From a virus: DNA of 64,000 nt. The notes under the pieces were generated by a model, which was not told the origin of the DNA, ran no database searches, and saw nothing but the letters and a program-made list of their open reading frames with translations. This document shows positions 2 to 61,196 of the stretch, piece by piece. Each line of letters begins with the position of its first letter. The first letter of the stretch is position 1. Location: the IMG/VR virus record IMGVR_UViG_3300025617_000006. One strand, written 5' to 3'. The position numbers and the translations under genes are program-made.

Positions 2-1375
2 TGCTTTACTATTAACTTCCATCATATCAGTTTCAACCATACTTTTTAGTTTTGCACATGCACTAATTTTAGTACCGTGTGTAGTATTAAATCCTTTGCG
101 GAACTTGCGTACATGTCCTTTGCGCATCGGTTCACTTACAAACAAACCTGGAATGTTTTCTTCACCGATGTCTTGAATCACAATAAGAGCGGCTTCACCG
201 ATTGAGTTATTCTCTACACTCCAGTAGATGTTGCTTGCTGTTCTATTCTTTGTTTGATCTTGAATGTAATCGCATATTTCTTTGAGTATTCTAATTTGTC
301 CGCTAATTGGAGTTGTATTATGTCTCCATTCTCCTGCTTGCTTATAACTCGGTACTTCAAAAATTTCAATTGCGGCATAGTCTCCGCCTGTTCCCATTGC
401 AGGATCTAAACAAATAGTGTATGTCATTGTAGGATCAAGTTTTTTATACCAGCGCACTTGACCCATATTTTCAATTGGATTTTTACCTTCTAATGAAGAT
501 AGTTTTAAACTGTTAATCAGTGTCTCGTCAAATACTAAGAATTCACATCCGTACTCTCGTCGAAACCTTTCTTCACCAATTCGACCTAATTCTGCTTTTT
601 TCCATTCTTCATCTCTATCAGGATGTTCGTCCCAAGCGGCTGTAAACCCGTGGAAGCCGTTAATACCTTCGGCTGTTTCGTTACCATGTTCGTCAAACTT
701 ATTTTGACTTTCTTTCCAAATAAGAGCAAATGTGTCTTCGTCTGAGTTAGGTGTACTTGTAATAATAGCACGACCACCTGTTGCTAGTGTAGGTGATATC
801 GAAGTCCAAAAGTCAGTAGCAATGTTAGGTTGCACAAATGCAAACTCGTCACAGTATAGTAGCGAGATACTCATACCACGTCCTGTGTTGCCTGTTGTAG
901 TCTGTGCTACAATACGTGATCCGTTTTCAAATTCCATTGATCCTTTATTATAGTTTGTTACGCCTGCTCTGATATGATCCGGACACAACTCATATCCGTA
1001 CCTAATACGTTGCATAATTTCTTGGGCACCAGTATACTTGTGTGCCGCAATAAGAATAGTTTGATCTGAATGAAACATTGCATACCATAATAAATATCCA
1101 GCGGCAGTAGTAGTTTTTCCACTTTGCCGAGGAAGCATGTTTACATTAAATCGAAAATCATGATAACTTGATAACAGATTAACTTGATAATCAAACGGTT
1201 CAAACAGCACTTTGCCTTTTACTGGATGTTGAATAAAGAAAAAGTTACGGGCAAAATACAAGTAACCATCAGTGGGGTCCATGCATTTTGATAATTCTTC
1301 AATATGAACTTGAGAAAACTTTTCTTTTTGGTGAGCCTTTTTAGTTAAGACTCCATCTAAACTCTTGTTTGCCAT
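2..1375 (-). CDS. gp17: Terminase large subunit (T4 gp17-like), 3' end beyond window start
   Basis: Translated by hand from ATG at 1375: MANKSLDGVLTKKAHQKEKF...EPFDYQ...LPRQSGKTT (Walker A)...GRGMSISLLYCDEFAFV (Walker B)...IITSTPN, then nuclease-domain motifs (CLDPAMGTGGDY). Absent from the ORF track because no stop lies in the window. Confidence 0.95.
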   Translation of the reverse strand, partial: MANKSLDGVLTKKAHQKEKFSQVHIEELSKCMDPTDGYLYFARNFFFIQHPVKGKVLFEPFDYQVNLLSSYHDFRFNVNMLPRQSGKTTTAAGYLLWYAMFHSDQTILIAAHKYTGAQEIMQRIRYGYELCPDHIRAGVTNYNKGSMEFENGSRIVAQTTTGNTGRGMSISLLYCDEFAFVQPNIATDFWTSISPTLATGGRAIITSTPNSDEDTFALIWKESQNKFDEHGNETAEGINGFHGFTAAWDEHPDRDEEWKKAELGRIGEERFRREYGCEFLVFDETLINSLKLSSLEGKNPIENMGQVRWYKKLDPTMTYTICLDPAMGTGGDYAAIEIFEVPSYKQAGEWRHNTTPISGQIRILKEICDYIQDQTKNRTASNIYWSVENNSIGEAALIVIQDIGEENIPGLFVSEPMRKGHVRKFRKGFNTTHGTKISACAKLKSMVETDMMEVNSKA

Positions 1376-5656: not shown

Positions 5657-6286
5657 TTAACTTGCGCCACCGCCGGTAACTAAAGTATTTACAGTTCTGC
5701 CTATGGCAGTACCAATACCAGTACCTTGTGGTGATTGAATTGCGTTGTCGTATCTAATTGATAATGCAATAGTTACAGGATCATTAGTTGCATATGCTAA
5801 TGAGTTGTAGTTTGCACTCTCAAGATAACAACCATACAATTCAAAAGTCTCTAGCACACCTGCTGTGTTTGCTCCGTTACCACCGTCTAAAATTTCAATA
5901 CGTGTAACAAATTTATAGTCTGCGCCCGATGCCGCACTTGACTGCTCGAAGAAGTCAAACTGTTTCTGTAACTGTTCGCCAACAAGTTTTTGTACATTGT
6001 TGGATACATCTTCACGTAAGTTAAGTGTAATCGGTTCCCATGTATGTTTACCTGCCAAGTATACTCTTGAGTTGTAAACATCTAGTGTAATTTGTTCGAA
6101 TGAAACGTTAGGTCTAGTAACGTCAACTACCTGCTTGGTTAATTCAGTAGTTGGTGTTGAGACTCCAAAGTTCTCTAGCGATACCCTAAAGCGGTATTGC
6201 AGTTTCGGCATTAACAAACCTTGTGCGGACGAACTTGCGTTACTATCCAAAGGCACTGTTAATCTTGAGAGTGATGAAATTGCCAT
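5657..6286 (-). CDS. gp19: Tail tube protein (gp19-like)
   Basis: PKLQYRFRV...RPNVSFE...YLAGKHTWEPITL...FELYGCY...LAY...IRYDNA; directly downstream of the sheath gene. Confidence 0.85.
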   Translation of the reverse strand: MAISSLSRLTVPLDSNASSSAQGLLMPKLQYRFRVSLENFGVSTPTTELTKQVVDVTRPNVSFEQITLDVYNSRVYLAGKHTWEPITLNLREDVSNNVQKLVGEQLQKQFDFFEQSSAASGADYKFVTRIEILDGGNGANTAGVLETFELYGCYLESANYNSLAYATNDPVTIALSIRYDNAIQSPQGTGIGTAIGRTVNTLVTGGGAS

Positions 6287-11448: not shown

Positions 11449-11481
11449 TATTTATGCGAATGGTCTCCGTGTCGATAAATA
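11449..11481. promoter_or_regulatory. Back-to-back late promoter motifs driving gp13 (-) and gp14 (+)
   Basis: GCATAAATA on minus (core 11454-11449) and GATAAATA on plus (core 11476-11481) in a 61-bp gap. Confidence 0.65.
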
Positions 11482-11489
11482 CAAGTACT

Positions 11490-12653
11490 ATGCCGAGAAT
11501 AAGTTTATATAAACCGCAAAAGGGTAACGACTATCAGTTTCTTGATAACACTATAACAGAGATGTTTACAGTGGGAGGAACTGATGTGTTTGTACACAAG
11601 TATCTAGGACCAAAGAATCCAGAGGAAGCAGATGCTACTCCGTCACAGCCTCATTATGACGCTGTTAAAGAAACAAATATTCAAGATATGCTGTTTATGG
11701 AAAACAGAGATCGCAAGTACGATCCAGACATTTATACAATGCGTGGCATTTACAGCGTACAAGATAACGACTTTGATATGAGTCAGTTTGGATTATTCTT
11801 AACTAACGACACTTTGTTTATGACTATTCCAATTAATTATAGTGTTAAAACTTTAGGTCGAAAAGTTATGCCCGGGGATGTATTTGAGTTGCCTCATTTA
11901 AAAGACGACCATGCTCTTAATGATTATAGTGTTGCACTAAAACGTTTCTATGTTGTAGAAGATGTTAATAGAGCCGCTGAAGGATTTACACAAACTTGGT
12001 ACCCACACCTATACAGAGTCAAATTAAAACAGATTGTTGACTCGCAAGAATTTAAAGAAATACTAGACTTACCAGCAGAAGAAGGTTCATCACAAACATT
12101 ACGCAATGTACTTTCTACATACGAGTCAGAGATGCAGGTTAATGACGCCATCCTTGCCCAGGCAGAGGAAGATGCTCCTAAGAGCGGATACGATACAACT
12201 CCATTCTACACACTTCAAGTCGACGCAGAAGGCAATCCTGAACTTGTTGGTGCAGACGAAACACTTATTGATGCGAGCATTGACAGTGGAGCACTTGATG
12301 CTAGTAGAGTAAATGAAACTCCTACAGCAACTGGTTATCAAGGGTACTTAATTGGAGACGGTATTCCGCCCAACGGTGAACAGTTCGGATTTGGTGCTTC
12401 ATTTCCGTTAGAAACTGTACGAGGTGATTATTTCTTAAGAACTGATTTTATGCCAAATAGATTATTTAGATTTGACGGACAAAGATGGATTAAAATGGAA
12501 GATTCAGTACGCATGGCACTGTCAAACACAGATGATAGAACAACTTATAAAACTGGATTTATCAATAACACACAAACAAGTGAAATTGCTGACGAAACTG
12601 TCCAACAAAGACAAAGTTTAAGTCAAGCACTTAAACCGCAGGCGGATAACTAA
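11490..12653 (+). CDS. gp14: Neck/head-closure protein (gp14-like) with C-terminal extension
   Basis: Start reassigned to MPRISLYK (11490), just after the promoter motif; QDMLFMENRDRKY, SQFGLFL, GDVFELPH; sits between gp13 and gp15. Confidence 0.7.
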   Translation: MPRISLYKPQKGNDYQFLDNTITEMFTVGGTDVFVHKYLGPKNPEEADATPSQPHYDAVKETNIQDMLFMENRDRKYDPDIYTMRGIYSVQDNDFDMSQFGLFLTNDTLFMTIPINYSVKTLGRKVMPGDVFELPHLKDDHALNDYSVALKRFYVVEDVNRAAEGFTQTWYPHLYRVKLKQIVDSQEFKEILDLPAEEGSSQTLRNVLSTYESEMQVNDAILAQAEEDAPKSGYDTTPFYTLQVDAEGNPELVGADETLIDASIDSGALDASRVNETPTATGYQGYLIGDGIPPNGEQFGFGASFPLETVRGDYFLRTDFMPNRLFRFDGQRWIKMEDSVRMALSNTDDRTTYKTGFINNTQTSEIADETVQQRQSLSQALKPQADN

Positions 12654-14065
12654 TGGCTCAACATTTTTATGACGGACAGATAAGAAGATATATTACTCAA
12701 ATGATTAGATTGATGAGTAATTTTTCTTATAAAAACGGCGACGGTACACTAACGCAAATTCCAGTTATGTACGGAGATATTACACGTCAAGTTGGTCACA
12801 TCTTACGAGATAATTCAGAGAATAAAGTTCCAAGTGCGCCTCGAATTGCATTATACATGACAGGACTAGAATTAGATCGTGACAGATTAGCCGATGCTAC
12901 GCATGTTAGTAAAGTGCATCTTAGAGAACGTGCATGGGATTCAGACGGTCAGGAATATTTAAATACACAAGGTAAGAATGTAACAGTTGAGAGGCTAATG
13001 CCAACTCCTTATACATTAAGTGTAAGTGCAGACATATGGTCGACTAATACTGATCAAAAATTACAAATTATGGAACAGATATTAATGCTGTTTAATCCAA
13101 GTTTAGAAATACAAACTACAGACAACTACGTAGACTGGACAAGTTTAAGCGTTGTTAACCTTGACGGAGTAACATGGAGTAGTCGAAGTATTCCAGCAGG
13201 TGCAGAAACCGAAATCGATGTAGGAACTTTACAATTTACTACACCCATCTATATTAGTCCGCCAGCAAAAGTTAAAAAACTTGGTGTTATTACTAATGTA
13301 ATTATGAGTATTTTTAACGAAGAAACTGGAAGTATTGATTTAGGACAATCAACACCGGAATTTAAACGTTATAGTAATGACACTGTGTATCAACAAGACG
13401 GCGAAGGTGTTGGAGAACGAAATGATGCCGATGCTCTTCAAGTAACTGGACACAAAAACTACGATCTATTAGTAATGGGCAACGAAGCACAACTAATTAG
13501 CAAGGGCGTAGTTGGAACAACACTATGGGACGGATATTTAGAAGCACTACCTGGAGAATTTACTGCTGGAGTTAGCCAACTACAATTAACTAGACAAGAT
13601 TTAAGTCAAAGTATTAACGGGTCAGTTGCAATTAATCCAAATGACGGTACAAAATTATCAATTACTTGGGATTCTGACACCATTCCTAGTGATACTGTTA
13701 TAACAGGAAGCACAGGAGATCGAAATAAGATTGATTATATTATCGATCCAACTAAAACTAATCCAACAAACATCAAATCGCCGGGTGCAAGAATATTACT
13801 ACTAGAAAGAATTGGCGATGCAGATAATGCAGACGGTGCTGATGCTTGGAAGAACACAGATAATTCAGACTTTGTAGCAAGTGCAAACGATATTATTGAA
13901 TGGACTGGCACAGAGTGGAATATTCTGTTTGATGCTAGTACTGAAGAAAATATCAAATACACTACTAACTTAAATACCGGAATTCAGTACAAATGGACTG
14001 GATCAGAATGGATATTATCATTCGAAGGCGAATATCGAAACGGAACGTGGCGCATACAGTTTTAA
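12653..14065 (+). CDS. gp15: Tail terminator / sheath stabiliser (gp15-like) with C-terminal extension
   Basis: HFYDGQIRRY, IPVMYG, PTPYTL, QIMEQILMLFNPSL motifs; TAATG coupling to gp14. Confidence 0.85.
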   Translation: MAQHFYDGQIRRYITQMIRLMSNFSYKNGDGTLTQIPVMYGDITRQVGHILRDNSENKVPSAPRIALYMTGLELDRDRLADATHVSKVHLRERAWDSDGQEYLNTQGKNVTVERLMPTPYTLSVSADIWSTNTDQKLQIMEQILMLFNPSLEIQTTDNYVDWTSLSVVNLDGVTWSSRSIPAGAETEIDVGTLQFTTPIYISPPAKVKKLGVITNVIMSIFNEETGSIDLGQSTPEFKRYSNDTVYQQDGEGVGERNDADALQVTGHKNYDLLVMGNEAQLISKGVVGTTLWDGYLEALPGEFTAGVSQLQLTRQDLSQSINGSVAINPNDGTKLSITWDSDTIPSDTVITGSTGDRNKIDYIIDPTKTNPTNIKSPGARILLLERIGDADNADGADAWKNTDNSDFVASANDIIEWTGTEWNILFDASTEENIKYTTNLNTGIQYKWTGSEWILSFEGEYRNGTWRIQF

Positions 14066-14077
14066 ATAACTATATGT

Positions 14078-14518
14078 ATGAGCCAGAAGATATCCTGTAG
14101 TGGTGCATTATTTTACGCACTAAATACCAAACGTTTCTTATTCTTACACCGTACACAATCAAAACAAAACAATGTTTGGGGACTTGTTGGTGGTAAAGGA
14201 AACACTGGTGAAAGCCCTATTAATATACTTCAGAGAGAGATTCAGGAAGAACTAGGATTTCAGCCTGAAATCTTAAAAACAATTCCATTAGAAACATTTG
14301 TTAGCACTGATGAAAAGTTTAATTTTCATACATACCTTACAGTTGTAAAAGAAGAATTTATTCCAAATTTAAATAACGAACATGACGGATATGCGTGGGC
14401 TAGTTTTAGTAAATGGCCAAAGCCGATTCACCAAGGTTTGCGTAATACATTACAAAACAAAACTAATGTTACTAAACTTGAAGCAGTATTTGAAGTTATT
14501 AATCTATTAGAGAATTAG
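14078..14518 (+). CDS. Nudix hydrolase
   Basis: WGLVGGK...GE......QREIQEELG Nudix box; LNNEHDGYAW. Confidence 0.85.
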   Translation: MSQKISCSGALFYALNTKRFLFLHRTQSKQNNVWGLVGGKGNTGESPINILQREIQEELGFQPEILKTIPLETFVSTDEKFNFHTYLTVVKEEFIPNLNNEHDGYAWASFSKWPKPIHQGLRNTLQNKTNVTKLEAVFEVINLLEN

Positions 14519-14520
14519 AA

Positions 14521-15663
14521 ATGAAAATATTAGTTATCGGCGATATAATTATCGACAAATATATATACGGTACAAGCACTCGGCTAAGTCCAGAGGCTCC
14601 AGTGCCAGTAGTTAGTCAAAAACGCACTGAAGAATCGTTAGGTGGCGCTGGACTTGTATACGAAAATCTTAAAAGCCTAGGTGTTGATGTTGAACTGTTT
14701 AACTATCAAGGTAATAACAGTGTTAAAACTCGAGTTATGTGCGACGGACATTATGTTACTCGTATTGATAATGATGTTTATGCTGACGGTGTTGAAATTC
14801 TTGAACGAATACAACGCATGAATTTTTCAGCCTATTCATATGTTATTCTAAGCGATTATAACAAAGGTGTTTTAGATCAATCATTAAAAATTATCGAGCA
14901 TCTTAATACATTCGGCTGTAAAGTTATTGTAGATCCAAAAGAACATGCTACACAATATGAAGGTGCATGGCTAGTAAAGCCTAATCATAAAGAGTTTAGC
15001 GACTTTGGGTTTATCCATTGGCAAAGCAACATTATCACAACTAATGCAGGTAACAATGTAATTGCAAAAATAGACGATAATGTATTTGAAGTACCTGTTG
15101 ATAACTTAGAAGTAACTGATGTTACAGGCGCAGGTGATTGCTTTATGGCTGGGTTTGTATACGGATTAACTAAAGAGTATAATTTTCAAAAGTGTTTAGA
15201 AATTGCTATTAAAGGCTCAACCAAAAGTGTAAAACATTCTGGTACGTATATACTGACACAACAAGACATAGAGGAAACTGTAGTCTTTACTAACGGTGTA
15301 TTTGACATCTTACACGAAGGACATTTTCAATTACTAAAATTTGCAAAATCAAAAGGAAATAAACTCGTAGTAGGCATTAATAGTGATGCTAGTACTAAGC
15401 GACTAAAAGGCGAAAGCCGGCCAATTAACGATCAACTGCAACGGCAGATAAATTTAAAATTATTACCCTGGGTTGACGATGTAATAATCTTCAACGAAGA
15501 CACTCCGTTAGAACTTATGAAACGAGTAAATCCTGACTTGCTCATTAAAGGCGGAGACTATACAATAGAAACAGTAGTTGGGCATGACTTATACCCTGTC
15601 GAACTTTTTCCTACTGTAGAAGGTAATTCTACATCAATGATTATAGAAAAAATTAAACAATGA
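14521..15663 (+). CDS. hldE: Bifunctional heptose-7-phosphate kinase / heptose-1-phosphate adenylyltransferase
   Basis: PfkB domain (RLSPEAPVPV, SDYNKG, VDPK, DVTGAGD) fused to a nucleotidyltransferase (TNGVFDILHEGH, GINSDAS, KGESRPIN, KGGDY). Confidence 0.92.
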   Translation: MKILVIGDIIIDKYIYGTSTRLSPEAPVPVVSQKRTEESLGGAGLVYENLKSLGVDVELFNYQGNNSVKTRVMCDGHYVTRIDNDVYADGVEILERIQRMNFSAYSYVILSDYNKGVLDQSLKIIEHLNTFGCKVIVDPKEHATQYEGAWLVKPNHKEFSDFGFIHWQSNIITTNAGNNVIAKIDDNVFEVPVDNLEVTDVTGAGDCFMAGFVYGLTKEYNFQKCLEIAIKGSTKSVKHSGTYILTQQDIEETVVFTNGVFDILHEGHFQLLKFAKSKGNKLVVGINSDASTKRLKGESRPINDQLQRQINLKLLPWVDDVIIFNEDTPLELMKRVNPDLLIKGGDYTIETVVGHDLYPVELFPTVEGNSTSMIIEKIKQ

Positions 15664-16484
15664 GAATATTAGTAACAGGACACGAAGGATTTATTGGAAA
15701 GAATCTCGCATCTTATTTGCAGTACAAAGGACATGACGTTGAAGGATGGGAATGGCAAGAGAATAAATTTCCAGATGCTCAACAATATGATAAAGTTATT
15801 CATCTAGGAGCAATAAGTTCAACAACTGAAACAGATATCGAAAAGGTTATGAAGCAAAACTATGAGTATACCATGAAACTTATAGAAATTTGTGATATGA
15901 TGGGTACTAGTATACAGTATGCTAGTTCAGCAAGCGTGTACGGTCAAGGAACTAACGGGTTTACTGAAGAATCTATGTGCAGTCCACAAAGCCCTTATGC
16001 TTGGAGTAAGTATCTTATTGATAGATGGGTTAAAGAATACCAAGATGACTTCAAAATCAACATCCAAGGATTTCGATATTTCAATGTATATGGTAATTTT
16101 GAAGATCATAAAGGCGATCAAGCAAGCCCAGTAACTAAATTTACTAAACAGGCAAAAGAAACTGGTAAAATTTATCTGTTTGAGAACAGCGATGCTTATC
16201 TACGTGATTTTGTTAGTGTACAAGATGTGTGCTTAGTACATGAGAAAATGTTGGAAATGGACATAAACGGTATTTTCAATGTAGGTACCGGTGTTGCAAG
16301 GTCTTTTAAGTCGATTGCTGATACTATTGCTAAAAAGTATAATGCCGAAGTTGTTGAAATTCCAATGCCTGACAAGTTAAAAGGCCAATACCAAGAATAT
16401 ACATGTGCCAACATGTCTAAAACACTGTCTACTATCGATCATACGTTTATTAGGCCCGAGGAATGGATTAATGACCAAGGATAA
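15660..16484 (+). CDS. hldD: ADP-L-glycero-D-manno-heptose 6-epimerase
   Basis: TGHEGFIG, HLGAISSTTE, YASSASVYG, YAWSK, FRYFNVYG..EDHKG, YQEYTCA. Confidence 0.9.
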   Translation: MRILVTGHEGFIGKNLASYLQYKGHDVEGWEWQENKFPDAQQYDKVIHLGAISSTTETDIEKVMKQNYEYTMKLIEICDMMGTSIQYASSASVYGQGTNGFTEESMCSPQSPYAWSKYLIDRWVKEYQDDFKINIQGFRYFNVYGNFEDHKGDQASPVTKFTKQAKETGKIYLFENSDAYLRDFVSVQDVCLVHEKMLEMDINGIFNVGTGVARSFKSIADTIAKKYNAEVVEIPMPDKLKGQYQEYTCANMSKTLSTIDHTFIRPEEWINDQG

Positions 16485-17172
16485 TTGCAAAGTCGAGTGG
16501 TGGAGTGTTGTACCAGGATTAACTAAAGTCGAACCTGTACAAACTGCTACCAAATTTTTGCCTCCCTGGTTTAAAAATATGCCACAGTTTTTGCAAGAAG
16601 ACAGTTTTCGTGACAAGGGTACATTAAAAAATTGCCCCGGATTTGTCGATTACTATAAAAATGCTTATGTTGTAACTATGTGGTGCGATTTTCACTTAAA
16701 AGTTACTAAAGATGATATAGCATGGCATTCAAGTAATGAAGATTTTACTATGAGTCTACACTACAATAACCAATTTAAAGATTATTTGCCTGAAAGTGCT
16801 AAAGATAAGTTTTTATGTGTTGCAAAAACCGATTGTCCGTGGCGTGTACGTACAAGTCCAGGCTGGGCAATGATGCAATTACCAATGTTTTATGATTTTA
16901 ATGAATATTTTGAATGCATGCCAGGGGTAACTCACACCGAATGGAGTCACCAGATTAATCAGCAACTACTAATTAAAAAAGAAGGTGAGTTTTTAATAGA
17001 AAAAGGCACACCTTTAGCAATGTATGTACCTATTAAACTTGCAGACCTCGAAACTACTGTACAAGACGAAGACGAAGACAAGTATCGTGCGAGTTTTGTC
17101 AGTAATATGATATTTCAAAGCAAATTTAAAGGCGCATATAAAAAATTTAGAGATAAATGGAGTAAAAAATGA
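16471..17172 (+). CDS. Hypothetical protein (KxCPG motif; C-terminal I.KGTPL motif)
   Basis: Start reassigned to MTKDNCK (16471), overlapping the hldD stop region; operonic with hldE/hldD. Confidence 0.55.
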   Translation: MTKDNCKVEWWSVVPGLTKVEPVQTATKFLPPWFKNMPQFLQEDSFRDKGTLKNCPGFVDYYKNAYVVTMWCDFHLKVTKDDIAWHSSNEDFTMSLHYNNQFKDYLPESAKDKFLCVAKTDCPWRVRTSPGWAMMQLPMFYDFNEYFECMPGVTHTEWSHQINQQLLIKKEGEFLIEKGTPLAMYVPIKLADLETTVQDEDEDKYRASFVSNMIFQSKFKGAYKKFRDKWSKK

Positions 17173-17573
17173 ATCGACTTGAAGGAAAAGTAGATAAAGG
17201 TTGGGGATATGAGTTAATTTGGGCAACTAATGACTTATACTGCGGTAAACTTATGGTATTTGAAAAAGCAGGAGCAAAATTTTCCATGCATTTCCATAAA
17301 GAGAAAGACGAAACCTGGTTTGTTAACGCAGGACGCTTTGAAGTTAAGTGGATTGACACTAAAGATGCTATGCTTTACAGTAAAGAACTTAAACCTGGAG
17401 ATGTTTGGCACAATCCTCCATTACAACCGCACCAATTAACCTGTCTCGAAGCCAATAGTAGTATCAGTGAAGTAAGTACTGCTGACTCAGTTGAAGACAA
17501 CTACCGTATTATCCCCGGTGACAGTCAAAAAGACGTAATTAGGAAAAATTCTCCGCCGCCAACAATGCCTTAG
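17169..17573 (+). CDS. Cupin-domain protein (sugar isomerase-like)
   Basis: KGWGYE, SMHFHKEKDETW, PLQPH, EVST cupin metal-binding motifs. Confidence 0.8.
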   Translation: MNRLEGKVDKGWGYELIWATNDLYCGKLMVFEKAGAKFSMHFHKEKDETWFVNAGRFEVKWIDTKDAMLYSKELKPGDVWHNPPLQPHQLTCLEANSSISEVSTADSVEDNYRIIPGDSQKDVIRKNSPPPTMP

Positions 17574-58571: not shown

Positions 58572-59006
58572 TTAGTCTTCTGGATCGTCTGACTCAAAGT
58601 CATCTGCGTCTGGATCGCCGTCAACATTATCAATAGTATCGTCTTCACCTGCTTCTTCCATTTCAACTGCATCATCATCTGTTGCATCGCTGAAGTTCCA
58701 AGCAATTGACTCGCCTGTATCAAGTGTTACTTTGCGTCCTGCAATTTTTGTAACTTGCTTTGCATTACCTGCATCGTCTTTTACTGTAATTGTCATTTCG
58801 CCATCAGTATCAATGTCACCAGTTACTTTGTCTACTAAGAAACAATCTGCTGTAGTTGTGCCATCAGTTACACGAAACTTTTTAGATCCTAATTGCTTTA
58901 CAATCCATCCGTTTACTGATGCAGATCCGTCCCAAAATTGCACTTTAATTTCGTCGCCGCCTGCTGTTGGTGGTCCAAAAAATCTTTTGTTTAGTGGTCT
59001 TCCCAT
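58572..59006 (-). CDS. Hypothetical late protein with acidic tail
   Basis: 144 aa, strong AGGAG SD; MGRPLNK...IVKQLGSKKFRV. Confidence 0.7.
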   Translation of the reverse strand: MGRPLNKRFFGPPTAGGDEIKVQFWDGSASVNGWIVKQLGSKKFRVTDGTTTADCFLVDKVTGDIDTDGEMTITVKDDAGNAKQVTKIAGRKVTLDTGESIAWNFSDATDDDAVEMEEAGEDDTIDNVDGDPDADDFESDDPED

Positions 59007-59010
59007 TTGT

Positions 59011-59098
59011 TTTCTCCTATATAAAGTAGTCCTATCCGGGTTCTATCCGGTACGCTGTGGGTACAGCATAAGTCCGCCTTGCGGCACACTATTTGACA
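59011..59098 (-). ncRNA. Candidate structured 5' leader RNA (multi-hairpin junction)
   Basis: UAGU/ACUA closing stem around GCC-GCAA-GGC, UAUGCUGU-ACCC-ACAGCGUA and CCGG-AUAGAAC-CCGG; lies between GATAAATA and the SD. Confidence 0.55.
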
Positions 59099-59105
59099 TA
59101 TGTAT

Positions 59106-59525
59106 TTATCTAATTGCAGTAATTGGTGAATTATTCTTTCTTACACTTAGATTTATAAAATCTCGTATAAAATCAAACTGTGTTGCTAACATACCAAACA
59201 GTTCGGCGTTAAGTCCTTGTTGCACAAGTGTATAAGAACTTTTTCCTATATCTGAATAGTATCTTACACTTATACCATATTCTGGAAATACACTTGTAAC
59301 AAACAAACAACAGTCGCCTAATTCTTTTGCTGTATAACGGTAAGGAGTCTTTAACTTAAGATATGACTGTGCGAATGTTTCTTCTGGAAGGAAGTTTGGT
59401 TTATCAAGTTTATCTGCAAGTAACATCACTATATAGGATTCTATATCTACAGGAAGTTCGTATCCTGTAGCAGACTGTGTTTCTTGAACAAGGTCATAAA
59501 AGACCGTTGTGTACTCGTCTCTCAT
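59106..59525 (-). CDS. Hypothetical helical protein (bacterial-like LGD.CL....FP / YY..IG.S.Y motifs)
   Basis: 139-aa ORF with TAAATA-N5-ATG start. Confidence 0.6.
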   Translation of the reverse strand: MRDEYTTVFYDLVQETQSATGYELPVDIESYIVMLLADKLDKPNFLPEETFAQSYLKLKTPYRYTAKELGDCCLFVTSVFPEYGISVRYYSDIGKSSYTLVQQGLNAELFGMLATQFDFIRDFINLSVRKNNSPITAIR

Positions 59526-59542
59526 ATTAATATTTAGTTAAG

Positions 59543-59565
59543 AAAAAGCCCGCACAGTGGCGGGC
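59543..59565 (-). terminator. Rho-independent terminator closing the pqqA unit
   Basis: GCCCGC-CACTGT-GCGGGC then TTTTT. Confidence 0.85.
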
Positions 59566-59571
59566 CTTTGT

Positions 59572-59700
59572 TTATTCACAATCTAATGTTTCTATTAGTT
59601 TGCTTATATCTATTTTTGGTTCTTCATCTACTACTTGTTCATTACATACATCGTTACTTCGAATCCGAATCTCATCTCTGTTGCTGTCGGTGTTGTCCAC
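59572..59700 (-). CDS. Putative 42-aa acidic peptide overlapping pqqA in another frame (GTG start)
   Basis: Open frame VDNTDSNRDEIRIRSNDVCNEQVVDEEPKIDISKLIETLDCE, ending just before the terminator; could share the pqqA SD. Confidence 0.3.
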   Translation of the reverse strand: MDNTDSNRDEIRIRSNDVCNEQVVDEEPKIDISKLIETLDCE

Positions 59701-59702
59701 AT
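59631..59702 (-). CDS. pqqA: Pyrroloquinoline quinone precursor peptide PqqA (23 aa)
   Basis: MWTTPTATEMRFGFEVTMYVMNK: canonical W..P.....R.GFEVTMY with the ExxxY pair; AAGGAG SD 6 nt upstream. Confidence 0.95.
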   Translation of the reverse strand: MWTTPTATEMRFGFEVTMYVMNK

Positions 59703-59745
59703 AGTGTACTCCTTAAATTAAGTTAATAAAATTGTACTGCAATAC

Positions 59746-59753
59746 TATTTAAA
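59746..59753 (-). promoter_or_regulatory. Late promoter-like motif (TTTAAATA) upstream of pqqA
   Basis: TAAATA core at 59751-59746, about 44 nt before the ATG; region is AT-rich so a chance match is possible. Confidence 0.45.
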
Positions 59754-59805
59754 CATATCTAGAAGCAAAAGTCATACGTATAATCATTAAAAGAAAGTAA
59801 AACTG

Positions 59806-59952
59806 TTACTTACCCTGGCCTTTATATTTTTTGTAACTACGTCTTTTGCTTTTATTCATCATACATTTAGAGTGTTTTCCTCCACCTATTGATGTTTTCT
59901 TTTTCGTAGTTTCGTGTGCTTCTATATTCGGGTTAAATTTAACACGAGCCAT
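59806..59952 (-). CDS. Small basic peptide (48 aa) ending KKYKGQGK
   Basis: MARVKFNPNIEAHETTKKKTSIGGGKHSKCMMNKSKRRSYKKYKGQGK; fills the gap after the gp23 terminator; AAAGGT SD-like sequence. Confidence 0.75.
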   Translation of the reverse strand: MARVKFNPNIEAHETTKKKTSIGGGKHSKCMMNKSKRRSYKKYKGQGK

Positions 59953-59981
59953 AAAACCTTTCGGTTAGTTTTTTAGTCATT

Positions 59982-60011
59982 AAAAAAGGGCGAAACTAAG
60001 TTCCGCCCTTT
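59982..60011 (-). terminator. Rho-independent terminator after major capsid gene
   Basis: AAAGGGCGGAA-CTTAG-TTTCGCCCTTT then TTT. Confidence 0.85.
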
Positions 60012-60032: not shown

Positions 60033-61196
60033 TTACGAGAATGTTACACCTGCTACTGACACACGTGCCAAGTAGTCTGCCGCATTACCAAGAGATGATG
60101 CAGTGTTGTTTAACTCTACATAACCGTATCTTGTCATGAACGATACTACTGGTTCGAATGTTGCCGGATCAAGTACAACACCTGAAGACATAAGCGGGAT
60201 GTATGGGCAATAGAATGCCGCCGCATCTGACTCTGATGTGCCTTTGTAACCAACAAGTACGTCTGTTGTGTCGGCTGCATATGCGTCTACGTATACTTTC
60301 ATTGCTCCGTTAAGAGTACCTACTAACTTAGTGTTAGTTGGTGCATCAAAAGTACCTTCAGTTGTTCTTGCGAACGCTGAAGTTGTAGCAGACTGTAGTA
60401 CAGTTAACGTATGCGGTGATACCACTGCAAAGTTACCTGCGCCACGGCGTGTACGCTGTGCAATTTTGTTAGCCGCTCTGTTGATCATTACTGCAAGTGC
60501 CGCATGTTCGTCACCGACGAATGTAGCAGTACCTGATACAGCAGTTTGATCATATTGAACGTCTGACTCAGCCGCTCCAGCCAAGTTGCGTAGTGAAGAA
60601 AGAACTTCTTGGTCGATTTCAGCAGTAATTTCTTGTGCTAATGCCGCCATGATTTCCGCTTCCACGTCAATGCCTTGTTGTGCTTGTGCGTCTTGTGCAG
60701 ACTCAAAAGTCCAACGTGCTGACAATTTACGTGTCTTCGCTTCGACTGTTTGCTTTAAGATCTGAATTGACAAACGCTTACCTGCTTCACCTTCAAGTGC
60801 CGCAGTTGCTGATGCCTTATCAGTTGCTCCACCACCGGAATAGCCTAAGCCAATCTTAAATGGTGATAGTGCTTCCTCACCTGCGGTTACGTCATCAAGT
60901 GTGTCTGAATAACGTACACGTAAAGTGTGGATTTGGCCGACTGGGCCAGTCATTGGTTGTACACCAACGATTTCGTTTGCGATGACTGTTGGCATCACAC
61001 GTCTGATTACTGGTAGGATAACTCTGTTTAAAGTTGCAACATTACCTGCAGAAGTGGCACCTGCTGTCGCGCTCTCATTCAAATACCTTTTAGTATTCTC
61101 TAGAGTTGCGGACATTACAGATTTTTTCGTGCCTTGTAGGCCTTCAAGTAATGCGCTTTTAGTTTCCTGCCAGCGTCCTTCTAATAGTTCTGACAT
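60033..61196 (-). CDS. gp23: Major capsid protein (gp23-like)
   Basis: RRVMPTVIANEIVGVQPMTGPVG, VEAKTRKLSARWTFE.AQD, EITAEIDQE, FYCPYIPL, FMTRYG. Confidence 0.97.
   Translation of the reverse strand: MSELLEGRWQETKSALLEGLQGTKKSVMSATLENTKRYLNESATAGATSAGNVATLNRVILPVIRRVMPTVIANEIVGVQPMTGPVGQIHTLRVRYSDTLDDVTAGEEALSPFKIGLGYSGGGATDKASATAALEGEAGKRLSIQILKQTVEAKTRKLSARWTFESAQDAQAQQGIDVEAEIMAALAQEITAEIDQEVLSSLRNLAGAAESDVQYDQTAVSGTATFVGDEHAALAVMINRAANKIAQRTRRGAGNFAVVSPHTLTVLQSATTSAFARTTEGTFDAPTNTKLVGTLNGAMKVYVDAYAADTTDVLVGYKGTSESDAAAFYCPYIPLMSSGVVLDPATFEPVVSFMTRYGYVELNNTASSLGNAADYLARVSVAGVTFS

Follow-up and report, generated by a model that had tools for sequence, protein, structure and literature searches.

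OM43, LD28 and other methylotrophs that abound in aquatic habitats draw their energy from methanol dehydrogenases, which need PQQ. This cofactor is made from the small peptide PqqA, of which a glutamate and a tyrosine residue are cross-linked and excised to yield the cofactor, the peptide being consumed one-for-one in the synthesis. Phages that carry pqqA have already been described. In T4-like phages of Methylophilaceae from Lake Baikal, Coutinho et al. 2020 (Microbiome 8:163, PMC7678222) found PqqA as well as a methanol dehydrogenase encoded by the virus, and suggested that PqqA acts as an auxiliary metabolic gene in support of methanol oxidation, the same role that we favor below; a 2026 reservoir study also names pqqA as one of the auxiliary genes of viruses (PMC13188868). 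A reading of the present DNA made from its sequence alone had cautioned that viral pqqA is not wholly new, and these two publications bear it out. Phage pqqA as a kind is known, and what we add here is modest, namely, a slot behind the capsid gene and a hybrid promoter.

The window, that is, the entire 64,000-nucleotide stretch of the IMG/VR record IMGVR_UViG_3300025617_000006 that was analyzed, covers the late structural region of a phage genome, with genes for a T4-type large terminase, sheath, gp15-like and gp9/10-like proteins, prohead protease, scaffold and capsid, in addition to baseplate genes and several giant fibre-like ORFs. The capsid protein is 67–71% identical to the capsids of cultured jumbo myophages with genomes of 285–470 kb (Vibrio phage 2.275.O, Sinorhizobium phage Phosso, Pseudomonas phage PA5oct, and Rak2/121Q-like phages of Erwinia and E. 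coli), and relatives with 80–96% capsid identity are numerous in IMG/VR. For three long relatives, CheckV reports a completeness of 26–60% at lengths of 92–210 kb, which translates into genomes near 350 kb. The carrier is therefore best described, as far as its genes and those of its relatives allow, as a predicted uncultured jumbo myophage of the Rak2/PA5oct-like type with a genome of approximately 350 kb. Within the tail and fibre region, the window also contains a plus-strand block (11454–17573 and neighbors) that encodes carbamoyltransferase, NAD-dependent epimerase, NUDIX, cupin and CN-hydrolase proteins as well as a PfkB kinase with a cytidylyltransferase-like domain (HldE-like), and that is a candidate sugar-nucleotide or decoration module.

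The evidence presented below makes it probable, in our judgment, that this phage carries a genuine, selected copy of host pqqA in the form of a self-contained cassette, that it is a jumbo phage of Methylophilaceae, and that the gene supplies the PQQ synthesis of the host.

The pqqA gene and its surroundings

The gene occupies positions 59631–59702 on the minus strand and consists of 23 codons, with an ATG start and a TAG stop. Its translation is exactly the 23-residue peptide that the sequence-only reading had taken for PqqA, and profile searches uphold that assignment over the whole length of both available models. The score is 38.5 bits against Pfam PF08042 (cut-off 21.1, E 1.1e-9, profile positions 1–19 of 19) and 37.6 bits against the NCBIfam equivalog TIGR02107 (cut-off 20, E near 1e-9, positions 1–21 of 21). 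The cross-linked pair, Glu15 and Tyr19, is retained within the motif E-V-T-M-Y, with the usual E-V-T-x-Y spacing. The Glu-x-x-x-Tyr arrangement is invariant across all collected phage and host copies, in which codons 9–19 are fixed by the search pattern, and it is also kept in six copies that were found pattern-free with tblastn.

Very short ORFs are plentiful in this DNA (104 of at least 20 amino acids within 7 kb, and approximately 1000 in the window), and a stretch of 23 codons might on that account be a chance ORF and not a gene. Against approximately 1000 small ORFs, however, a match with an E-value of about 1e-9 is far beyond chance, and it was obtained full-length with two curated models; moreover, the ORF has a dedicated Shine-Dalgarno site, promoter and terminator, and the divergence within the core is exclusively synonymous. 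The possibility of a chance ORF is thus effectively refuted and can be set aside.

The pqqA gene lies 331 nt downstream of the gene for the major capsid protein of the Gp23 family (60033–61196, minus strand; PF07068, E 4.7e-97; phrog_138), and its placement beside the capsid gene in the earlier reading is correct. The capsid gene ends in an intrinsic terminator, T1 (59979–60011, minus strand), composed of a 12-bp hairpin followed by U6 (−16.8 kcal/mol), which is conserved in a close relative, denoted L127. Between T1 and the promoter of pqqA there is an ORF for a basic protein of 48 amino acids (59806–59952, minus strand). It is similar to phrog_17967 (E 3e-8) and also to phrog_516, and has no homologue among the fetched loci of relatives; it is a member of a phage protein family with no part in PQQ biology, and a 103-nt spacer that holds the promoter elements separates it from pqqA. 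A Shine-Dalgarno sequence, AAGGAG (59709–59714, minus strand), stands 6 nt before the ATG codon, and an AGGA or GGAG site is found upstream of every cultured-phage copy of the gene as well. On the 3' side, approximately 60 nt past the stop codon, a second intrinsic terminator, T2 (59536–59569, minus strand), consists of a 10-bp GC-rich hairpin (59544–59569) and a U-tract (−15.8 kcal/mol); the ribosome-binding site and the terminator that had been noticed by eye are accordingly both real. Directly beyond T2 come a TAAATA motif and the next conserved gene of the structural module (59106–59525). The 48-codon ORF and the pqqA cassette together make up a variable cargo slot (59537–59971, minus strand) that is replaced in L127. 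No tRNA genes were found in the window or in the corresponding slot of the relatives.

Other genes of PQQ synthesis do not accompany pqqA. A Pfam scan of the 52 larger ORFs of the window identified 24 families, among them none of PqqB, PqqC, PqqD, radical SAM or PQQ-dependent dehydrogenase, and a tblastn search with PqqB (C-terminal part), PqqC, PqqD and PqqE of Ca. Methylopumilus found no match in the window or in 206 viral loci. The PqqC, PqqD, PqqE and methanol dehydrogenase families were likewise not found in the records of three relatives (98, 92 and 210 kb), whereas each of these families was detected in the genome of Ca. Methylopumilus, which served as the host control. There is, then, no canonical pqqABCDE operon in the window or in approximately 400 kb of sequence from these relatives, and the previous description of pqqA as a stand-alone unit, with its own expression signals and without pqqBCDE in the window, is confirmed by both types of search.

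PqqE is itself a radical-SAM/SPASM enzyme, and one might imagine that radical-SAM enzymes of the phage itself take the PqqA-like peptide as a substrate and turn it into a product other than PQQ. We consider this highly improbable, given that the radical-SAM matches of the relatives are generic, the best phage match to PqqE reaching 19.9 bits vs a cut-off of 381, and that no PqqD-like recognition domain was detected in any relative examined. The distribution of the enzymes also speaks against it, with none in the 98-kb record of the pqqA-positive relative and one or two in two relatives that are pqqA-negative; furthermore, pqqA is present in phages of 35–44 kb that have no radical-SAM island.

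Recurrence of pqqA in phages and the slot behind the capsid gene

When 50,697 GenBank phage records were searched with tblastn, an intact pqqA was present in all nine Methylophil*-named phage records returned, which include podo-, sipho- and myophages: P19250A (a phage of the LD28 host), Venkman, MEP301, MEP401, MEP402 and four Melnitz isolates. The tenth GenBank carrier is a Caudoviricetes genome from spring water (MW202481, Manatee Spring). The only remaining matches, two contigs labeled 'Acinetobacter phage MD-2021a' (tblastn E 0.4), yielded no further phage example; the one that was inspected, of 144 kb (L329, CAKLQF020000010.1, 106710–109763), has ppk, pqqA, pqqB and pqqC in the order of the bacterial operon and looks like bacterial chromosome. 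The gene is missed by gene callers. Among the six GenBank records that were inspected (L001–L006: KX815270, MT375522, MW452941, OP830906, MZ577097 and MW202481), it is unannotated in four (P19250A, Venkman, MEP301 and MEP401) and overlapped by a 'hypothetical protein' on the wrong strand in the other two (Melnitz and MW202481); the Melnitz paper makes no mention of pqqA, and the peptide matches none of the PHROGs v4 families. In IMG/VR, at least 120 contigs contain the PqqA core. Among 106 unique viral copies of 23 codons, the codons left free by the search pattern give a pS of 0.51 and a pN of 0.14 (pN/pS 0.275). Viral pqqA is thus under purifying selection, as is expected of an auxiliary metabolic gene, and, in further agreement with that status, the copy in the window is flanked by phage structural genes and has homologues in the genomes of cultured phages.

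Where pqqA is present in the capsid loci that we compared, it always lies just behind the capsid gene. In four phages of the jumbo clade, one of them represented by two contigs, the distance ranges from 63 to 331 nt: pqqA is downstream by 331 nt in the window, 313 nt in L086 and 176 nt in L126, and in L163/L164 it is 63 nt from the capsid gene on the opposite strand. The same placement, 262 nt downstream, is seen in a T4-like phage (L093) whose capsid protein is only 34% identical. Presence of the gene is nevertheless the exception, with pqqA in only two of the best 80 capsid loci, and absence at this site, as distinct from the whole genome, in all 54 scorable loci (those with at least 700 nt downstream of the capsid gene). 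The nearest relative, L127, with a 96% identical capsid protein and 81% DNA identity across the head module, has no pqqA; it keeps the capsid terminator and the next gene, and 306 unrelated bases take the place of window positions 59537–59971. The lineage can therefore do without pqqA, which is missing from the nearest relative and, at this site, from most others. Five changes are needed to account for the six carriers on the capsid tree, and the strongly supported branches alone force at least four, a count in which gains and losses are not distinguishable.

The slot is also home to other cargo in relatives, namely, glutamine riboswitches together with a small ORF, manA RNA and freshwater-2 RNA. 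We read the slot as a recombination-tolerant site behind the most strongly transcribed late gene, at which self-contained cargo has been placed repeatedly. The aptamers of the glutamine riboswitches (RF01739) precede a small ORF and lie at 341–388 (minus strand) in L086, 5234–5281 in L133 and 5666–5713 in L132, the last of which also has manA RNA (RF01745) in the slot at 5949–6158. The riboswitch unit of L086 is located next to the pqqA cassette, and in L126 the same riboswitch element, recognized by eye only, comes after pqqA, in swapped order.

The neighborhood contains another structured RNA. A freshwater-2 RNA (Rfam RF02980) at 59004–59088 on the minus strand, with 70.7 bits vs a gathering score of 49.9, lies in a 99-nt gap 5' of a gene for 144 amino acids, 540 nt downstream of pqqA. 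It recurs in 11 of the 16 loci of relatives (L127, L129, L132, L133, L135, L137, L141, L171, L176, L178 and L197), a few hundred bases behind the capsid gene, and this orphan metagenomic motif is thereby tied to the late structural module of a jumbo-phage clade.

The patchy distribution on the capsid tree (five changes for six carriers), the lack of pqqA in L127 and the interchangeable nature of the cargo, riboswitches and manA RNA included, are what one would expect if pqqA were a neutral passenger, that is, recently captured host DNA (a 'moron') that sits in a recombination-prone slot and brings the phage no benefit. This explanation seems to us unlikely, although less so than the other alternatives considered here. 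It has to contend with purifying selection over the 106 unique viral copies, with the presence of pqqA in every record of a cultured Methylophilales phage returned, across unrelated morphotypes, with the recurrence of the post-capsid position in L093 despite a capsid identity of only 34%, and with the retention of the promoter architecture. A selected gene that supplies host PQQ synthesis accounts better for these observations.

Promoter elements of the cassette

Upstream of pqqA, there is a −10 element, TTAAAT (59746–59752, minus strand), preceded by TGT, which makes it an extended −10; it overlaps a TAAATA motif (59746–59751). The −35 region is weak, and a sigma-70 scan under strict rules called no promoter at pqqA. 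Farther upstream lies a host-type pqqA control box (59773–59790, minus strand), the left half of which, TTAATGATT, is intact and the right half degenerate. Its counterpart in the host is the palindrome CTAATGAtttTCATTAG (CTAATGA and TCATTAG, separated by ttt), which is found upstream of chromosomal pqqA in Methylophilaceae, with a longer leader. The box includes the 8-mer TAATGATT at 59782–59789, 29 nt upstream of the −10 hexamer, a spacing that puts the center of the box near −41.5, where class II activators classically bind. A palindromic operator so placed, with a constant spacing to the −10 element, is the arrangement of a class II promoter, and the box is accordingly a putative activator-binding site.

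Of 117 viral cassettes, 32 have the same 8-mer in sense orientation 5' of pqqA, compared to 1.2 expected, and it is kept in three of the six inspected phage records (P19250A, Melnitz and MEP301). An alignment of 31 unique cassettes on the box reveals a conserved 17-nt element, a stretch without conservation and then a conserved −10-like patch exactly 29 nt past the 8-mer. A 15-mer within this region resembles the 7-1-7 core of a Fur box; the center near −41.5 and the weak −35 region fit an activator better, and a literature search for a Fur box at pqqA gave no paper that makes this link.

Given that a host-type operator is held at a fixed spacing in approximately one quarter of the viral cassettes, the many box copies on replicating phage genomes, or the peptide itself, could conceivably serve as a decoy that titrates a host regulator or PqqD and so re-programs PQQ and methanol metabolism instead of boosting it. 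We attach little probability to this idea, distinctly less than to a neutral passenger. Three quarters of the viral cassettes lack the box and still have an intact ORF, selection acts on the coding sequence, and a peptide that is nearly identical to the host substrate should be processed and not inhibitory.

The second component of the promoter is the TAAATA motif, which the sequence-only reading had suspected to be a late promoter element. TAAATA is depleted across the window (67 copies vs approximately 97 expected), but 22 of its 41 minus-strand copies are located within 60 nt upstream of minus-strand gene starts, where 1.7 are expected. Viewed from the genes, 22 of the 45 minus-strand genes, pqqA included, have the motif at such a distance (again with 1.7 expected). 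This positional bias supports the suspicion and makes TAAATA the probable late-promoter core of the phage. The canonical T4 late promoter, TATAAATA, shows no enrichment, with three copies found in the window vs 7.6 expected. A longer form, GTTTAAATA, is present only at pqqA within the window and is thus a feature of the cassette alone. Its −10 region is found in the same version in L086, L126 and L163, which may reflect common descent of the cassette and not convergence.

The cassette thus appears to combine host-type and late-type control. Transcription of pqqA is probably dual, driven by the sigma-70 RNA polymerase of the host together with an activator bound at the box and also by the late machinery of the phage via TAAATA, and read-through from the capsid transcript may add to it. 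A more far-reaching proposal, which we advance only tentatively and would not ourselves bet on, is that unrelated methylophages exchange the pqqA cassette as a small mobile expression module, which repeatedly lands behind the capsid terminator, and that in the jumbo clade its −10 element has been re-tooled as a late motif. If that were the case, a single gene of 23 codons would answer the PQQ regulator of the host early in infection and the late program of the phage thereafter. The retained host box also offers a route to the regulator of pqqA.

Hosts, proposed role and known systems

To identify the likely hosts, genomes were searched with a degenerate DNA pattern for the core E-M-R-F-G-F-E-V-T-M-Y, which was found in at least 120 genome contigs; such patterns fix the core codons and find this core type only, so that the counts are lower bounds and biased to the Methylophilaceae type. 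Among the matches listed, 88 of the 91 contigs with a family name belong to Methylophilaceae, and the carriers of the core include Methylotenera, Methylophilus, Methylovorus, Methylobacillus, Ca. Methylopumilus and an OM43 single-cell genome. The window peptide is identical in 22 of 23 positions to the commonest Methylophilaceae PqqA among the matches listed, the difference being A6T, in keeping with the resemblance that the sequence-only reading had pointed out. Assignment of the host to Methylophilaceae is therefore well supported at the family level by these sequence matches. The earlier proposal of a methylotrophic host stands to this extent, whereas marine OM43, its more specific suggestion, is one candidate among several: the same commonest peptide form (A6T) is found in OM43, Ca. 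Methylopumilus and Methylotenera, a freshwater-2 RNA is located 540 nt from pqqA, and neither the peptide sequence nor the GC content separates marine from freshwater hosts. At 38%, the GC content of the window agrees better with streamlined pelagic Methylophilaceae, marine or freshwater, than with Methylotenera or Methylophilus, which is weak evidence.

The organization of pqqA in these hosts bears on how a solitary phage copy could function. The chromosome of Ca. Methylopumilus universalis MMS-RVI-51 has three copies of pqqA, near 416, 457 and 1186 kb, and pqqCDE at 577–580 kb; every pqqA copy is more than 100 kb away from pqqCDE, and no operon-linked pqqA is detectable with PF08042 in this genome. 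Many other Methylophilaceae contigs likewise have several pqqA copies. With three host copies at such a distance from the genes for the processing enzymes, supply of PqqA in trans is natural in these hosts.

On the basis of these observations, we infer that the phage gene is translated during infection, that its product is processed by host enzymes and that the phage gains in fitness as a result. The infected cell would receive from the phage PqqA, the only consumable component of PQQ synthesis. The PqqD and PqqE proteins of the host, followed by PqqB and PqqC together with peptidases, would convert it to PQQ, which would keep the periplasmic PQQ-dependent methanol dehydrogenase supplied after host transcription falls and thus provide energy for virion production. 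As PQQ can be used again and again, its new synthesis need not be what limits a single infection cycle. In addition, culture media for OM43 contain 1 nM added PQQ, which indicates that growth with external PQQ is possible (PMC9004378). If the proposed role is correct, a phage that brings along nothing but the consumable suggests that the supply of PqqA is the first step to fail in the infected cell. Phage pqqA would then be a simple and testable case in which the precursor of a RiPP acts as an auxiliary metabolic gene. Although gene callers miss it, pqqA is a compact host marker for phages of Methylophilaceae.

The closest described systems differ from the present locus in several respects. 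Like the phage in the window, the Baikal T4-like phages (VP_266, PMC7678222) are T4-type myophages with PqqA and a predicted Methylophilaceae host. They also encode methanol dehydrogenase, which is found neither in the window nor in approximately 400 kb of its relatives, and the capsid in the window groups with those of Rak2/PA5oct-like jumbo phages; cassette anatomy, post-capsid slot and promoter are left undiscussed by Coutinho et al. 2020. The cultured methylophages (P19250A, Venkman, MEP301, MEP401/402 and Melnitz) likewise have an intact stand-alone pqqA of 23–24 codons with a Shine-Dalgarno site. In their much smaller genomes, however, the gene is located in early or recombination modules or beside tRNA genes, whereas the copy in the window belongs to the late structural module behind the capsid gene.

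The orphan pqqA copies of the host encode a peptide with 22 of 23 identical residues, stand alone as well and share the palindromic upstream box. They have the full palindrome, whereas in the phage the right half-site is degenerate and the −10 element doubles as a putative late motif; the leader is also shorter, the phage box starting 87 nt from the ATG codon, compared to 110–173 nt in 10 of the 11 host loci with a box and 266 nt in the remaining one. By analogy, phage pqqA may be likened to cyanophage psbA, in that the phage would in both cases replace a part of the host energy machinery that is turned over rapidly or consumed, with the remaining parts left for the host to provide, the difference being that psbA encodes a structural subunit, the D1 protein, whereas PqqA is the substrate for a RiPP.
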